Below are positions 848 to 5,340 of a stretch of DNA of 5,340 bases, piece after piece (within the stretch, counting starts at the first letter, position 1; each line of letters begins with the position of its first letter). The stretch is from a virus (Duplodnaviria > Heunggongvirae > Uroviricota > Caudoviricetes), in the IMG/VR virus record IMGVR_UViG_2521172589_000005. The stretch is one strand, 5' to 3'. Made by a program: the position numbers and the translations under genes. A model generated the notes under the pieces. It saw only the letters and a list, made by a program, of their open reading frames with translations. It was not told the origin of the DNA and searched no databases.

Positions 848-1255
848 TTATTTTATTGATTTATTTTTACGCGCTTTAAGCATTTCTTCGAAGAGTTTGT
901 TGAAGTTTTCTACTCTTGCGCGCATTTCAGACAGCAAGGCTTCCTGCTCGGAAGATGGAAGAGCATCGAATAATTCGATCAATTCTTTGTGGTTGGGAGT
1001 TAGCTCTGTTTCCACATGAAGTTCTTGTGCAGGCACTGGTGCCTTGTCTTCGTCACCAAACATTAGCCATGTAGGTGAGCACTTCAGAGCATCCGCTAAA
1101 GCAAACAATCGTTTTCCGACTGGCTGGGTTTCGTCTCTTTCCCATTGTGAAATTGTGACGTGAGCAACTCCAGCGAGGCGCGCAGCTTCTCGTTGTGTTA
1201 AGCGTAATTCTTTTCGTCGCGCCAGAACTCGCTGGCCTAGGGTTCTTGTATCCAT
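848..1255 (-). CDS. dicA: Prophage immunity repressor, XRE/cI-type helix-turn-helix, 135 aa (DicA-like)
   Basis: 135-aa ORF with a classic HTH (LTQREAARLAGVAHVTISQWERDETQP). Divergent from a 75/76-aa Cro-like gene and followed on the same strand by the ydfA/B/C-sized genes. Size equals K-12 DicA (135 aa). No recognisable Shine-Dalgarno before the ATG at 1255 and a TAGAAT -10 box lies only about 9 nt upstream, so the mRNA may be leaderless (inference). Confidence 0.8.
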   Translation of the reverse strand: MDTRTLGQRVLARRKELRLTQREAARLAGVAHVTISQWERDETQPVGKRLFALADALKCSPTWLMFGDEDKAPVPAQELHVETELTPNHKELIELFDALPSSEQEALLSEMRARVENFNKLFEEMLKARKNKSIK

Positions 1256-1277
1256 AGTTAGGTAATTCTAATTTTTC

Positions 1278-1322
1278 TTGACTTAGATATCCCGCGCACA
1301 ATAATGTTAGAAAAGTCTAACA
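1278..1322 (+). promoter_or_regulatory. Putative rightward promoter for the Cro-like gene with an overlapping operator palindrome
   Basis: -35 TTGACT (1278-1283), 16-nt spacer, -10 AATAAT (1300-1305). Palindrome TGTTAGA-aaag-TCTAACA (1305-1322) overlaps the -10 and start site. A degenerate relative, GTTAG-gtaattc-CTAAT, sits at about 1257-1273 near the predicted dicA -10. Confidence 0.5.
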
Positions 1323-1335
1323 AGAGGGGGCTTTG

Positions 1336-1563
1336 ATGCTTAAAGTTGACGCAATTACTTTTTTTGGCAGCAAAACAAAGCTTGCCAATGCCGCAGGAGT
1401 GAGACTGGCAAGTGTTGCTGCTTGGGGGATACTGGTTCCTGAAGGTCGCGCGATGCGTCTACAGGAGGCATCTGGCGGGGAGCTTCTGTATGATCCCAAG
1501 GTTTATGACGAATATCGTAAGACGAAGCGGGCGGGGCGGTTGAACAATGAAAATCACTCCTGA
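1336..1563 (+). CDS. dicC: Cro-like small regulator, 75 aa from ATG 1336 (76 aa if the TTG at 1333 is used); DicC-like
   Basis: AGAGGGGG Shine-Dalgarno at 1323-1330 with 5-nt spacing to ATG 1336. Transcribed divergently from the repressor. Size matches the 76-aa DicC of the Qin prophage. Confidence 0.75.
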   Translation: MLKVDAITFFGSKTKLANAAGVRLASVAAWGILVPEGRAMRLQEASGGELLYDPKVYDEYRKTKRAGRLNNENHS

Positions 1564-2068
1564 ACAGGCTCGTGAGGCTCTGGATGCCTGGATATGTCGA
1601 CCAGGAATGACACAGGAGCAGGCGACGATATTAATCACTGAAGCATTCTGGGCTTTGAAAGAGCGCCCGAACATCGATGTTCAGCGTGTCACAGATGAAG
1701 GTGGCGCGGTTGATCAGCGAGCGCTTGGCGTTAATCGAGTGAAGATATTCGAACGCTGGAAGGCTATCGACACCAGGGATAAGCGTGAAAAGTTCACGGC
1801 GCTAGTGCCTGCAATTATGGAGGCTATCCGGATTAATGATTTCAGGTTGTATCGTGAAATTAGTGACGGAAATAGCATCACGTACATGATCGCCGGGTTA
1901 AACAAAGAATATGGCGATGTGGTGGAGTCCGGACTGCTTTTTGCTGATCCTGCCGTAGTGGATCGTGAAACTGACGAACTTATAGAAAAAGCAATTGCTT
2001 TCAAACTTGCGTATCGACAGCAATACCAACAAAAAGCTGGATGGAATTATGAGCCTTCTTTTTGCTGA
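1547..2068 (+). CDS. YdaT-like protein (DUF1019-type, cII-like regulator or putative toxin), 173 aa
   Basis: ATG at 1547 overlaps the dicC stop (1561-1563) by 17 nt. The stretch IFERWKAIDTRDKREKFTALVPAIMEAI resembles the conserved core I recall for Rac prophage YdaT. Gene order repressor / Cro-like / YdaT-like is the known racR-ydaS-ydaT arrangement. Confidence 0.6.
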   Translation: MKITPEQAREALDAWICRPGMTQEQATILITEAFWALKERPNIDVQRVTDEGGAVDQRALGVNRVKIFERWKAIDTRDKREKFTALVPAIMEAIRINDFRLYREISDGNSITYMIAGLNKEYGDVVESGLLFADPAVVDRETDELIEKAIAFKLAYRQQYQQKAGWNYEPSFC

Positions 2069-3014
2069 ACGCCCACTGGTTATAAACACACAGCTTGCGA
2101 TGAAGATTGGCTTAAATGAAGCTATTGTGTTGCAGCAGTTGCATTACTGGTTGAGAGATACCAATTCCGGCATGGAATGTGATGGTGTTCGCTGGATTTA
2201 CAACACAACGGAACAATGGCTGGAACAGTTCCCATTCTGGTCAGAGTCAACGTTAAAGCGCGCGTTTGCAAGTCTGAAAACGCTGGGGCTTTTGCGTTGT
2301 GAAAAGCTCAATAAATCAAAGCGCGATATGACCAATTTCTACACGATTAACTATGGGAGCGAGCTTTTAGATGATGGCAAATTGAGCGAATCCATCGGTT
2401 CAAAATGCGCCGCTCCATCAGGTCAAAATGACACGATGGAAGAGGTCAAAATGAAACGCTCCATTGGTTCAAAACGACCCAATGTCATCGGGTCAAAATG
2501 GCCCGATGATCCTACAGAGAATACAACAGAGATTACTACAGAGAATAAAAACACTTTTCGTCCGGAAGCTTCGCAACCGGACCCGCAGACGGCTGAACAG
2601 GATTTTTTAATCCGGCACCCTGGCGCAGTTGTGTTTAGTGCGAAAAAACGCCAGTGGGGTAGCCAGGAGGATCTGGCGTGTGCGCAGTGGATATGGGGGC
2701 GGATCGTGGGTCTCTACGAACAGGCCGCCAGTGATGATGGCGAGATCATGCGACCAAAAGAGCCTAACTGGACTGTCTGGGCCAATGATGTGCGCACAAT
2801 GCGGATGCTGGATGGCAGAAGCCACAGACAAATTTGTGAAATGTTTGGTCGGGTACAGCGGGATCCATTCTGGGTAAAAAACATCATGAGCCCGTCAAAG
2901 CTCCGCGAAAAATGGGACGAACTGGTCATCCGCCTGGGGCGTTCACCTGTACAGCGTTGTGTTAATCATATTTCTGAACCGGATACAGAAATTCCGCCTG
3001 GTTTCAGAGGATAA
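2049..3014 (+). CDS. Phage replication initiator: lambda-O-like N-terminal domain, repeat-encoded linker, DnaT-like C-terminal domain
   Basis: 339-codon frame opens with TTG at 1995; the first ATG (2049) gives a 321-aa product and overlaps the upstream stop by 20 nt. The N-terminus (SESTLKRAFASLKTLGLLRCEK) has the winged-helix pattern of lambda O-type organisers. The C-terminus ends ...VNHISEPDTEIPPGFRG, closely matching the C-terminal tail of E. coli DnaT as I recall it (...NTVSEPDSQIPPGFRG). The middle encodes IGSK peptide repeats that are iterons at the DNA level. Confidence 0.8.
   Translation: MSLLFAERPLVINTQLAMKIGLNEAIVLQQLHYWLRDTNSGMECDGVRWIYNTTEQWLEQFPFWSESTLKRAFASLKTLGLLRCEKLNKSKRDMTNFYTINYGSELLDDGKLSESIGSKCAAPSGQNDTMEEVKMKRSIGSKRPNVIGSKWPDDPTENTTEITTENKNTFRPEASQPDPQTAEQDFLIRHPGAVVFSAKKRQWGSQEDLACAQWIWGRIVGLYEQAASDDGEIMRPKEPNWTVWANDVRTMRMLDGRSHRQICEMFGRVQRDPFWVKNIMSPSKLREKWDELVIRLGRSPVQRCVNHISEPDTEIPPGFRG
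2391..2500. repeat. Iteron array: five direct repeats, consensus about TCCATCGGGTCAAAATG, at 22-25 bp spacing, inside the initiator gene (putative prophage ori)
   Basis: Core GGT(T)CAAAA(T/C)G at 2397-2407, 2421-2430, 2444-2453, 2466-2476 and 2491-2500. Four copies carry the extended CCAT(C/T) left arm. Arrangement parallels the lambda ori iterons located within gene O. Confidence 0.7.
2511..2560. repeat. A/T- and purine-rich tract with three ACAGAGA repeats at 12-bp spacing, just right of the iterons (candidate DNA-unwinding element)
   Basis: ACAGAGA at 2514-2520, 2526-2532 and 2538-2544, followed by AATAAAAACACTTTT. Position relative to the iterons mirrors the lambda ori AT-rich region. 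Confidence 0.5.
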
Positions 3015-3054: not shown

Positions 3055-3477
3055 GTGGCAAAAGTTTTTACACAAGAAGAGCGGGAAAAAATTAAAGGGC
3101 AGGTGGTGGAACTCGTGCGCCAGAGCGGTCGTGAGACGTTACGGCAACTGGAAGCTAAAACAGGTGCGACTAGATATCTGATGAGCGTTCTTGCCAGAGA
3201 GCTGGTAGCCAGTGGCGATGTATACAACTCCGGCTACGGGTTATTCCCGTCTGAACAGGCGCGTAAGGACTGGCAAAACGCCCGCAAAAAACTCTCGAGG
3301 GCAAAGGTGAAGAAAACAGCTGTGGTTGATCCGGACCTTATCTGGTCGTTACCTGATGGAGAAATACGTCGCTACGACAGTCGCCTAAACATAATCTGTC
3401 GCGAGTGCCGGAAGAGCGAAGCTATGCAGCGTGTACTGGCTTTCTACCAGGGTAATTTTCAGGAGGCGGTACTGTGA
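3055..3477 (+). CDS. Hypothetical protein, 140 aa, in the slot where a helicase loader (P or DnaC-like) is normally found
   Basis: GTG start at 3055 preceded by a strong AAGGGGGA Shine-Dalgarno 5-6 nt upstream. No Walker A motif visible, so it is not a DnaC-like loader. Single CxxC (CRECRK) near the C-terminus. Function unknown. Confidence 0.75.
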   Translation: MAKVFTQEEREKIKGQVVELVRQSGRETLRQLEAKTGATRYLMSVLARELVASGDVYNSGYGLFPSEQARKDWQNARKKLSRAKVKKTAVVDPDLIWSLPDGEIRRYDSRLNIICRECRKSEAMQRVLAFYQGNFQEAVL

Positions 3478-3714
3478 GTGAAATTAGCTATCAGGCTTCA
3501 ATTGCCGCTGGCATTCGCATCAAAGGAGAGGAGCATGGAAATAAAACCAGAGGATTAGTTAAGCAATATCGTTTTATTTCCGATAAAAGAGGATGACCCT
3601 CGTAATCAGGTTAATTTTCTTTATGAGCCATCGGAAAGACCATATTGCCATCACGCTTCTGTCCGGGTTGACGAAAAAGAGCGTCAGGTCCGCTGTAAAA
3701 TCTGAGGTGCAGTT

Positions 3715-3891
3715 GTGGAGCCATTTGACTGGATGCTCTCTGTGGCGAAAAGAGAAACCAGACTGGCAGATGATGTAAGGCTCTTGCGCCAGGAGGAACG
3801 GGAAAGGCGAAAAAATATAGAAAAGCTAATTCAGATTGAGCGTAACGGGAAAGCGCGGATACGCAGGGTGACAAAATCCAGAACTGAATAA
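3715..3891 (+). CDS. Small basic, coiled-coil-like protein, 58 aa (hypothetical); below the ORF-track cutoff
   Basis: GTG at 3715 with GAGGTG Shine-Dalgarno 5 nt upstream. Product VEPFDWMLSVAKRETRLADDVRLLRQEERERRKNIEKLIQIERNGKARIRRVTKSRTE, stop TAA 3889-3891. Competes with the listed minus ORF 3611..3943, whose translation looks non-protein-like. Confidence 0.4.
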   Translation: MEPFDWMLSVAKRETRLADDVRLLRQEERERRKNIEKLIQIERNGKARIRRVTKSRTE

Positions 3892-4159: not shown

Positions 4160-4336
4160 ATGGCTGATTTTGGTTCAACTAAATACAACGTCGGTTTTGA
4201 AGAATGGCATGAACTGTTAATGGACTATGCAGAGTTACGTGGTGGCAGTGCTGCTGATGCTGAAGCATGGCGTGATGATTATGAAGCAGGAAAAACTCCG
4301 GTCGAAGCATATTGTGATGAGTGGGGCGATGAATGA
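4160..4336 (+). CDS. Very acidic small protein, 58 aa (hypothetical)
   Basis: GAGGAGG Shine-Dalgarno at 4144-4150 and ATG at 4160. Product MADFGSTKYNVGFEEWHELLMDYAELRGGSAADAEAWRDDYEAGKTPVEAYCDEWGDE has 16 Asp/Glu in 58 residues. Stop TGA 4334-4336 overlaps the next ATG (ATGA). Confidence 0.55.
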   Translation: MADFGSTKYNVGFEEWHELLMDYAELRGGSAADAEAWRDDYEAGKTPVEAYCDEWGDE

Positions 4337-4648
4337 GCGAGGTTAATTATCAGGAAGGGCATGAAACGGCGGGGCAAGCAAAAACAGTGGCATGGCGATA
4401 TCGCTACGTGAAAAAAAGGCGTTACGGACTTTCAGGGGAAGTAGTGGTCTGGTGACTGGAAATATGTACCGAAAAAAGAGGATTGTAACGATAGGCAGAA
4501 CTATGAAATTCAGGCCTTATTCACTGCCCCGCCAGTCCCGGTTACATCAGAAGAACTGGTTAAAGCTGTGCACTTTTATGAACAACTAAAACGCGAAAAT
4601 CCACCAGCATCCGGAAACCTGATTACAGATTCCCAGATAAGGCAATGA
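4333..4648 (+). pseudogene. Frame-split gene: 40-codon ORF (4333..4455) abutting a 67-codon protein-like frame (+1, 4445..4648) that has no start codon; frameshifted pseudogene or recoding candidate
   Basis: ATG 4333 is coupled to the upstream stop; this frame ends at TGA 4453-4455 in a TGA-C context. The +1 frame opens at 4445 and encodes ...DWKYVPKKEDCNDRQNYEIQALFTAPPVPVTSEELVKAVHFYEQLKRENPPASGNLITDSQIRQ with no ATG/GTG/TTG before codon 42. The track ORF 4392..4589 in the third frame looks non-coding. Confidence 0.35.
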
Positions 4649-4818
4649 GCTACCTGGCGCAGAACGGGCTGATAAGTATGGGGAATGTTTTACGATGAAT
4701 ATTTAGACTAAAGAGTTTGTAACGCTATGTAAGTGATTTTTTCTGGTTTAGATATTTATATGTCCGGCTAAATTGAGGTGTGTTTAAATGTTATTGCACA
4801 TTGATTGTAGGGGGAATA

Positions 4819-4998
4819 ATGAAAAACGCATTGCAGTTTTTGTTTGTTGCGTTCTGGTTGTTCGCATCATGTATGCCCATCATCTTCACAGCAAGGTATA
4901 TGGAAAAAGTTGATGTTTTGATATTAATATTTGGATATATAAATGCCCTTTTTTTAGGGGTGTTCATGGCGGTCATGTGCATTGAATACTGGCGGTAA
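4819..4998 (+). CDS. Small hydrophobic protein, 59 aa, two predicted transmembrane helices (hypothetical)
   Basis: Internal ATG at 4819 of track ORF 4780..4998, with AGGGGGA Shine-Dalgarno 4 nt upstream. Product MKNALQFLFVAFWLFASCMPIIFTARYMEKVDVLILIFGYINALFLGVFMAVMCIEYWR has two hydrophobic segments of about 20 residues. Sits in a visibly AT-rich islet (about 4680-5000). Confidence 0.55.
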   Translation: MKNALQFLFVAFWLFASCMPIIFTARYMEKVDVLILIFGYINALFLGVFMAVMCIEYWR

Positions 4999-5080: not shown

Positions 5081-5087
5081 GACTGCG

Positions 5088-5255
5088 GGTGCTTGAGGCT
5101 ATCTGCCTCGGGCACGAACACCAACGGCAGGTAGAGAAAAGCCCCAGTTAACATTACGCGTCCTGCAAGACGCTTAACATTAATCTGAGGCCAATTTCAT
5201 GCTAGACACATGTAGGTTAGCCTCTTACGTGCCGAAAGGCAAGGAGAAGCAGGCT
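5088..5255 (+). promoter_or_regulatory. hok mRNA leader with tac-like 5' element and Sok-target region
   Basis: CTTGAGGCTATCTGCCTC (5092-5109) closely resembles the 5' tac element of plasmid R1 hok mRNA (CTTGAGGCTTTCTGCCTC, from memory). TAGCCTCTTAC...GCAAGGAGAAG..GGC.ATGAA upstream of the start likewise parallels the R1 mok/hok initiation region. AAGGAG Shine-Dalgarno at 5241-5246. Confidence 0.55.
5140..5207 (-). ncRNA. Putative Sok-like antisense RNA (boundaries approximate)
   Basis: On the minus strand: -35 TTGCCT (complement of 5237-5242), 17-nt spacer, -10 TAACCT (complement of 5214-5219), the same layout as the R1 sok promoter (TTGCGC-17-TATCCT). Transcript would be antisense to the hok leader. 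The 3' end is not defined; there is a GCGTC/GACGC hairpin near 5157-5172 but no clean U-tract. Confidence 0.4.
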
Positions 5256-5340
5256 ATGAAGCAGCAAAAGGCGATGTTAATCGCCCTGATCGTCATCTGT
5301 TTAACCGTCATAGTGACGGCACTGGTAACGAGGAAAGACC
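5256..5340 (+). CDS. hokD: Hok-family type I toxin, N-terminal 28 codons only (gene runs off the window end)
   Basis: ATG at 5256 with AAGGAG 9 nt upstream. Translation MKQQKAMLIALIVICLTVIVTALVTRKD matches the HokD (RelF)/Gef N-terminus and transmembrane segment as I recall them. Location on the dicC side of a Qin-like prophage fits hokD. Confidence 0.8.
   Translation, partial: MKQQKAMLIALIVICLTVIVTALVTRKD

Follow-up and report, generated by a model that had tools for sequence, protein, structure and literature searches.

We examined a 5,340-nucleotide stretch of viral DNA (Caudoviricetes; IMG/VR record IMGVR_UViG_2521172589_000005; referred to below, at its full length, as the window), and in particular a YdaT-like gene at positions 1547-2068 on its plus strand. 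The window (5340 bp) is a 99.9% match to a chromosomal prophage located beside ompW in Escherichia coli strain 1EC213, the YdaT-like gene itself is matched at 100% in the same RefSeq genome, and most complete E. coli genomes carry parts of the window. It comprises the immunity and early-right region of an E. coli lambdoid prophage of the Qin/PPompW type; in the matching genome one flank holds int, xis, an exonuclease gene, dicB and ydfD, and the other flank holds antiterminator, lysis, terminase and portal genes. A gene for a DicA-like repressor (the CI analog; 848-1255, minus strand; NCBIfam DicA, E = 2.7e-67) is followed on the map by dicC (the Cro analog; 1336-1563, plus strand; NCBIfam DicC, E = 1e-48; Pfam P22_Cro, 43.5 bits; RefSeq coordinates), with which the rightward early operon begins. 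The YdaT-like gene comes next (supported by its open reading frame [ORF], Pfam PF06254, PHROG 163 and RefSeq WP_001441841.1), followed by an O-like replication initiator (2049-3014, plus strand; PHROG 391, E = 3.1e-92; RefSeq coding sequence 14049-15014), so that the initiator lies where an earlier reading made from the sequence alone (the sequence-only reading) had placed it. By analogy with characterised relatives, the YdaT-like gene most likely encodes the cII-like DNA-binding regulator of this prophage and not a toxin.

The ORF runs from an ATG at 1547 to a TGA at 2066-2068 and encodes 173 amino acids. It starts inside the Cro-like ORF, which extends from TTG 1333 or ATG 1336 (the start used by RefSeq) to 1563, and the two genes therefore share an out-of-frame overlap of 17 nt (1547-1563, plus strand), just as the sequence-only reading had described. 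The RefSeq annotation is identical, with Cro/CI at 13336-13563 corresponding to 1336-1563 of the window and a 'toxin YdaT family protein' at 13547-14068 corresponding to 1547-2068. K-12 Qin (dicC/ydfX) and phage PhiR42_1 have the same 17-nt overlap, and so do phages in which a YdaT of the CP-933P type follows a gene that is annotated as DicC or resembles it; where the Cro-like gene of a relative is of another kind, the overlap is ATGA, 4 nt (7 nt in locus L013). Comparison of the window with the Salmonella locus L015 accounts for the two lengths, because a 1-nt length difference upstream of the common sequence TGAACAATGA makes DicC read 14 nt further. ORF 1547-2068 is more than a chance reading frame; it is a genuine gene. 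Its Shine-Dalgarno sequence is of moderate strength (-7.2 kcal/mol, with a strong -11.1 kcal/mol for dicC), which makes translational coupling to dicC plausible.

At its 3' end the gene overlaps its other neighbor, the ATG of the O-like gene lying at 2049 and 20 nt being shared (2049-2068), a second overlap that the sequence-only reading had not mentioned. The conserved core of the protein ends ...AYRQQYQ, and the tail beyond it (codons approximately 161-173, positions approximately 2027-2068) varies with the downstream replication module. In an AlphaFold2 model of the protein, built on 32 homologs, the last approximately 12 residues are disordered (predicted local distance difference test [pLDDT] score below 50), with residues 166-173 both disordered and phage-variable. 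Because this tail varies with the replication module and has a predicted disordered state, the overlap of 20 nt looks like a mosaic or recombination joint between the immunity and replication modules. We rejected the idea that the protein is a replication accessory factor: the Cro-like neighbor is kept while the replication module swaps (O-like, DnaT-type, or DUF1376 plus DnaC-type), and the overlap with the O gene is made by those variable, low-confidence last residues.

The gene belongs to the YdaT family by sequence, predicted fold and synteny, and within it to the Qin/CP-933O type. Pfam PF06254 (YdaT_toxin) matches the protein at 26.8 bits, above its gathering cutoff of 21 (E = 7.3e-6, with the model reaching residue 131), and matches all 32 of the subfamily members that we collected; the family assignment made by the sequence-only reading, and the profile search that it had proposed as a check, are both borne out. 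The protein falls in PHROG 163 ('CII-like transcriptional activator', E = 3.6e-40), which also contains the YdaT of the Rac prophage, and hhalign against Rac YdaT gives a probability of 97.4% (E = 1e-11) over residues 1-106 only. Searched against PDB as a single sequence, the protein gave only marginal matches (E = 0.045-0.076); searched as a subfamily profile, it reached 8bt1 at 1.7e-5 and 3c4r at 6.2e-5, which are the two solved YdaT structures. The AlphaFold2 model (mean pLDDT 86.4) had chains of 8bt1 and 3c4r as its only meaningful Foldseek matches in PDB (probability 1.0; template modeling [TM] score 0.56-0.66, target-normalized), the rest being noise, and identity to these solved YdaTs is approximately 26-30% over the aligned part. 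No model in NCBIfam matches the protein, and a Foldseek search of the BFVD viral predicted structures returned nothing at E <= 0.001. Structure prediction had been suggested as a check for a cII-like fold; the model has a helix-turn-helix (HTH) and resembles YdaT, and lambda CII structures are not among its PDB matches.

Gene order agrees with this assignment. The order of repressor (minus strand), Cro-like gene, YdaT-like gene and replication genes (plus strand) was found in every locus examined, despite differing replication modules, and homologs with 36-46% identity in Citrobacter, Salmonella and Enterobacter keep it. In an exhaustive search of 1.84 billion representatives, no more than 81 clusters (at 50% identity) were recovered, which makes this a small family whose named members are enterobacterial. 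The protein shares a motif, 'S-I-x-Y...L-K-E...L-L', with relatives of approximately 150 residues recovered in that search.

The model places helices at residues 5-16, 23-36, 57-73 and 77-97 and has a loop of 20 residues at 37-56 (the published range for the alpha2-alpha3 loop of the YdaT family is 9-23 residues), so that residues 1 to approximately 106 are, as modeled, a POU-like HTH DNA-binding domain with a long alpha2-alpha3 loop. Invariant residues of the subfamily are concentrated in the HTH and include Arg70 and Trp71, which align with R57 and W58 of Rac YdaT; Glu69 aligns with Rac H56, at a position that is variable across the subfamily. A Rac YdaT H56A/R57A mutant does not bind DNA (PMC11879457). 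The C-terminal half is predicted to form helices at 99-106, 111-130 and 135-164, instead of the single tetramerization helix alpha6 of the characterized YdaTs, which makes residues approximately 107-164 a helical region unlike theirs; it likely contains some helical oligomerization module.

Two relatives of this protein have been studied experimentally. YdaT of CP-933P is a tetramer with a POU-like HTH. Its footprint covers TTGATT-N6-AATCAA where ydaS and ydaT meet, and it activates a PRE-like promoter, PRE933P, that is otherwise silent; no toxicity was detected, and its authors contend that YdaS/YdaT is not a toxin-antitoxin (TA) pair (PMC8630535, PMC9986795). In Rac, YdaT binds ATGATTCATGAAAATCAA, where the ATG of ydaT itself falls in the spacer of the footprinted box (ATGATT-CATGAA-AATCAA), and raises leftward racR expression up to 29-fold, ydaT expression being little changed (PMC11879457). 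With CP-933P YdaT (8bt1, and its close relative 3c4r) the protein described here shares the Pfam family, the HTH with its long loop (this being the best fold match), the position after the Cro analog and, as a candidate operator only, an inverted-repeat site at the cro-like/ydaT junction; it differs from that protein, which has 141 residues and one 29-residue tetramerization helix, in its two predicted and non-alignable helices (111-130 and 135-164), and in a box that reads TTGAAC-N6-AATCAC against the consensus TTGATT-N6-AATCAA. With Rac YdaT (K-12, b1358) it shares PHROG 163 and homology over residues 1-106. In both prophages a box (here a predicted one) spans the ATG of the ydaT gene in one register, a -10-like hexamer keeps the same distance from it, and another box lies upstream of the xis-int genes (xisR-intR in Rac). 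The differences from Rac are a 22-nt gap there between ydaS and ydaT in place of an overlap, a different C-terminus, and His56 where Glu69 stands here; the documented host target rcsA, and the toxicity, belong to Rac YdaT.

The box that corresponds to these footprints in the window is an imperfect inverted repeat, TTGAAC-AATGAA-AATCAC (1540-1557), which has the ATG of the YdaT-like gene in its spacer, stands in the same register relative to that ATG as the footprinted Rac box, and is the predicted operator of the YdaT-like protein. For a position-specific comparison across loci, we fetched the corresponding junctions from Citrobacter, Salmonella, S. bongori and Enterobacter genomes, from soil and other metagenome assemblies, and from one more canonical relative. 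The pattern nTGA(A/T)(C/T)-N6-(A/G)(A/T)TCAn lies over the ydaT start in all of these diverged junctions. This relaxed pattern, TGAWY-N6-RWTCA, has 1 match in the window where 0.21 are expected, and it coincides with the start of ydaT in 23 of 24 loci, the 24th (L014) being a partial 32% match; of two further phage loci, one (L027) has the box at the ydaT start and the other (L026), where the left half is degenerate, does not. The left half-site falls either in intergenic DNA or within the 3' ends of unrelated upstream genes (of the DicC/P22_Cro type, the YdaS type and a third type). Its reading frame in the window is a different one, and two loci have an ATG displaced by 3 nt with both half-sites unmoved. 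A generic inverted-repeat search over 1250-2100 returned a palindrome at 1305-1322 (discussed below) and many 6-mers, and no stronger operator candidate at the junction. The hexamer TGAACA occurs both at 1541-1546, in the left half-site, and at 1561-1566, at the dicC stop codon, 20 bp apart and with AAATCA midway; this may represent a third in-phase half-site comparable to the weak flanking sites OL and OR of CP-933P.

To the left of the box, a -10-like hexamer, TACGAT (1514-1519, minus strand), marks a predicted leftward PRE-like promoter that lacks a -35. The predicted start at approximately 1507 puts the center of the box at approximately -41.5, and the -35 position reads CAACCG. A minus-strand hexamer TAnnnT that starts 20-21 bp past the box (18 bp) on its left side is present in 12 of 12 loci, and in 14 of 14 when L026 and L027 are included; the mean -10 score at this offset is 3.71, versus 1.49 +/- 0.5 at other offsets (12 loci). 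Box and hexamer occur together in this geometry in 13 of the 14 related junctions (the box is degenerate in the remaining one). The layout is that of a predicted class-II activator-dependent leftward promoter, antisense to dicC and sense for the DicA-like repressor gene. A strict promoter and terminator scan of positions 700-2300 returned only the PR-like promoter described below and no leftward one, a result that is expected for an activator-dependent promoter but is no evidence for one.

The combination of a box with a correctly spaced TAnnnT occurs exactly twice in each of three prophage loci, L001 (29 kb), L028 of Salmonella and L029 of Citrobacter (20 kb): once at the ydaT start and once just upstream of xis-int. 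Shuffled sequence yields 0.007-0.017 such sites per locus. In L001, which is the same prophage as the window, the second site lies outside the window at 8661-8678 (leftward; TGAACATTAAAAATCA with TATAGT); the counterparts are at 1698-1713 in L028 (leftward, with TATAGT) and at 4301-4316 in L029 (leftward, with TATATT). The 10.5 kb of K-12 Rac that were examined (L030) contain only two exact box matches, one being the box at the ydaT ATG and the other TTGATTATTAATAATCAG at 2505-2520, which is accompanied by TAACAT and lies upstream of xisR. In each of four diverged prophages, Rac included, the second box precedes the start codon of xis by 17-30 nt, an arrangement that suggests direct activation of xis-int by YdaT. 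We found no mention of the xis-int site in the YdaT literature searched, and a third site of this geometry, analogous to PaQ, was not found in the Q regions of L001, L028 and L029.

From these observations, and by analogy with the tested homologs, we propose that the gene encodes a YdaT-family, CII-analog transcription factor acting through the box at 1540-1557, and we assign this interpretation a probability of roughly three in four. In the lysogen the operon would be silent, the palindrome at 1305-1322 adjoining its PR-like promoter. Once the DicA-like repressor is gone, upon infection or derepression, DicC and the YdaT-like protein would be made together, ribosomes that finish dicC probably helping to start translation of the YdaT-like gene. 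The protein would oligomerize through its helical C-terminal half and bind the box through the HTH recognition helix that carries Arg70 and Trp71. From approximately -41.5 it would then activate the leftward promoter that has no -35 and has TACGAT (1519-1514) as its -10, and the resulting transcript would run antisense through dicC into the repressor gene, which is the logic of lambda PRE. The second, equally spaced box upstream of xis-int would probably turn on the recombination genes in the manner of PI, and if overexpression did arrest growth, this would be collateral to the protein's activity as a transcription factor, as shown for Rac YdaT, and no dedicated toxin function. The more specific proposal that Qin-type and Rac YdaT are both class-II activators of two leftward promoters without a -35 in each prophage, one at the ydaT start and one at xis-int, is tentative, and we consider it slightly less probable than its negation.

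Several points weigh against the proposed regulator. The window box is a poor palindrome, with three of six positions symmetric. It lies 3 mismatches from the CP-933P consensus, and at up to 3 mismatches that consensus has 6 matches in the window where 4.4 are expected, a count that is uninformative alone and for which reason the junctions were compared position by position across loci. The relaxed pattern was chosen after the loci had been inspected, which makes its enrichment partly circular, and conserved codons (Met-x-Ile) coincide in part with the right half-site. Several of the loci compared at the -10 position have coding homology there (YdaS-type) and are not independent, and the shuffles behind the expected number of box-plus-hexamer sites kept only the mononucleotide composition. 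In Rac, the promoter that depends on YdaT is placed by the authors approximately 190 bp from the box and not adjacent to it (PMC11879457); the adjacent promoter proposed here would be included in their construct as well. Unlike lambda PI, which lies inside xis, a promoter located upstream of xis would give Xis plus Int. Residues approximately 107-173 do not align with characterized YdaTs (the hhalign match to Rac YdaT stopping at 106), and with two predicted helices instead of one tetramerization helix the oligomeric state could differ. For the Qin-type protein itself we infer DNA binding, oligomeric state, activation and toxicity alike from tested relatives and from sequence comparison.

A regulator of the YdaT type need not be an activator, and we considered whether the protein acts mainly as a repressor, autoregulator or roadblock that binds at its own start, and perhaps in the dicA-dicC intergenic region, and so shuts off the rightward early and replication genes. 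The box does lie within the rightward operon and over the gene's own ATG, Rac YdaT also protects approximately 100 bp covering the PydaST promoter (PMC11879457), and the structural paper terms CII and YdaT 'repressors'. In Rac, however, YdaT bound to the box changed expression of ydaT little, whereas racR rose steeply, and the conserved -10-like hexamer at a class-II distance on the opposite strand and the site upstream of xis-int are expected of an activator and are left unexplained by a roadblock. We regard a mainly repressive role as unlikely.

It is still less probable that the gene is an intact-looking but decaying remnant of a defective prophage, with no current role. Such a fate is seen in K-12 Qin, where ydfX (96 aa) consists of only the first 93 codons of this gene plus a short foreign tail; many database entries for the gene are likewise truncated or fused, and two neighboring genes are RefSeq pseudogenes. 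Over its first 93 residues YdfX (b1568) is near-identical to the window protein (3 differences), its DNA is 98.9% identical over the first 280 nt, and it has the identical 17-nt overlap with dicC; it differs in that it stops after the DNA-binding domain, lacking the entire C-terminal helical half that the intact 173-residue protein has, and in that a ydfW/intK remnant lies downstream where replication genes follow the window gene. DNA of the gene occurs in 2,708 of 5,426 complete E. coli genomes, with 80% or more of its length present in 2,121 of them, and it is carried by three phage genome records (mEp460_ev081, HannyBb and PhiR42_1), in which it is labeled cII or CII-like. Identity of 36-46% is kept across genera, with the invariant residues concentrated in the HTH, and int, xis, replication, lysis, terminase and portal genes are present in the prophage around it. 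Each of these points argues against a remnant.

The name under which the gene is deposited raises the further alternative that it is the toxin of a YdaS/YdaT-type TA pair, with DicC as antitoxin or partner, whose role is to kill or arrest the host. The Pfam name 'YdaT_toxin' and the RefSeq label 'toxin YdaT family protein' both say so, and in Rac derepression of ydaS-ydaT leads to growth arrest and filamentation (PMC5700377; PMC11879457). The toxin/TA label, however, derives from a prediction algorithm, has been contested since 2010 and 2018, and was left without evidence by a later study (PMC5917428); CP-933P YdaT is non-toxic and its authors reject a TA pair; and the toxicity of Rac YdaT is reported to follow from direct activation of host rcsA and of the RcsA/B regulon (PMC11879457). 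The predicted fold is an HTH like that of 8bt1, with no enzymatic or membrane-toxin features, PADLOC gave no defense-system match for the YdaT-like, DicC or DUF977 proteins, and the gene is carried in the three phage genome records already named. We consider a dedicated toxin highly improbable, a little more so than a remnant. The sequence-only reading had called the choice between regulator and toxin 'unresolved', which lags the literature: the homologs are transcription factors (PMC8630535, PMC9986795, PMC11879457), and the fold, the Arg-Trp pair and the operator-like sites of the window agree with them.

That the protein is a true homolog of lambda CII, as its position between cro and O, the PHROG name 'CII-like transcriptional activator' given to both families, and the Arg-Trp common to both recognition helices (PMC11879457) might suggest, is refuted at the level tested, by profile (hhalign probability 0.06%, E = 0.78), by PHROG (191 for lambda CII, 163 here), by fold (no lambda CII structure among the Foldseek matches in PDB) and by repeat search (no match in the window to TTGC-N6-TTGC, the direct repeat bound by the 97-residue lambda protein). 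Of the claim that the gene occupies the cII position, the gene order and the probable function stand, and homology to lambda CII does not. Lambda CII is an HTH activator of leftward promoters without a good -35 (PRE and PI) and is toxic when overproduced (PMC5917428), and the logic proposed here is that of lambda; the YdaT-like protein is, by this analogy, most likely a functional, non-homologous counterpart of CII.

The gene is abundant and already annotated, and it belongs to a family whose role is known from two relatives; what we describe refines a known system and does not add a new kind. New here are an uncharacterized Qin-type member with a different predicted C-terminal module, a predicted variant operator, and the predicted PRE and xis-int sites. 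A literature search found no paper testing the Qin-type protein; YdfX has been called the 'Qin prophage YdaT homolog' in a 2025 paper (PMC11879457), and in another publication the function of the ydfX product is still given as unknown. With the intact form assigned to the YdaT family of CII analogs, ydfX acquires an origin, and the 'toxin' reading, a misleading name carried by a gene present in about half of complete E. coli genomes, is corrected. If the two-promoter proposal is true, the PRE analog would lie beside the box, nearer than the promoter assigned at approximately 190 bp in Rac, and the approximately 100-fold rise of xisR and intR on RacR depletion in published Rac work, together with prophage excision, would be driven directly by YdaT; the two-helix C-terminal module of the Qin type would represent a second solution to oligomerization in the family. 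The predicted sites (1540-1557, 1514-1519 and the xis-int box) would then explain both the establishment of lysogeny and the switching on of the recombination genes in Qin/PPompW-type and Rac-type phages. PPompW-type prophages occur next to Stx2a phages in Shiga toxin-producing E. coli strains.

Upstream of dicC, a promoter scan identified a PR-like sigma-70 promoter, TTGACT-16-AATAAT (1278-1305, plus strand), which agrees with the consensus at 10 of 12 positions and from which dicC, the YdaT-like gene and the replication genes would be transcribed. Its -10 is abutted by a perfect palindrome, TGTTAGA-N4-TCTAACA (1305-1322). The shorter form TGTTAG-N6-CTAACA, allowing up to 2 mismatches, occurs three times in the window where 0.13 occurrences are expected: it is exact at 794-811 and at 1305-1322, and degenerate at 758-775, the first and last of these lying between the repressor gene and the ydfA-like gene. 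We take this palindrome to be the DicA operator; the copy at 1305-1322 would then probably be a DicA-type operator that silences the operon in the lysogen, and the other copies probably DicA operators likewise.

On the minus strand, ydfC, ydfB and a DUF1391 (ydfA-like) gene occupy 149-679. The dicA-like gene has zero Shine-Dalgarno complementarity before its ATG at 1255 (1256-1275, minus strand; +0.2 kcal/mol), which recalls the leaderless translation of lambda cI and of CP-933P paaR2. Within the O-like gene there are five tandem 23-bp repeats (core GGTCAAAATG) at 2393-2508, followed by three repeats of CTACAGAGAATA, with 12-bp spacing, at 2512-2550; both sets look like origin iterons placed within the initiator gene, as in lambda.

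The right part of the window contains a DUF977/Ren-like gene (3055-3477), small ORFs and two pseudogenes, and then, at the right end, the sok/hokD locus. The pseudogenes (3568-3891 and 4333-4698) are annotated as such by RefSeq in the near-identical genome, one having an internal stop and the other a frameshift; decay has therefore reached a part of this prophage's early-right region, while its immunity and replication genes remain intact. An ORF at 4780-4998 (ATG at 4819) could encode a very hydrophobic small protein of at most 72 residues (MKNALQFLFVAFWLF...), and lies in a stretch in which RefSeq has no gene (L001 16699-17255). The sok/hokD locus is a type I toxin-antitoxin system: a match to the sok antisense RNA (Rfam RF01794, 107.8 bits) at 5087-5261 overlaps the start of hokD (5256-5340), which runs out of the window.

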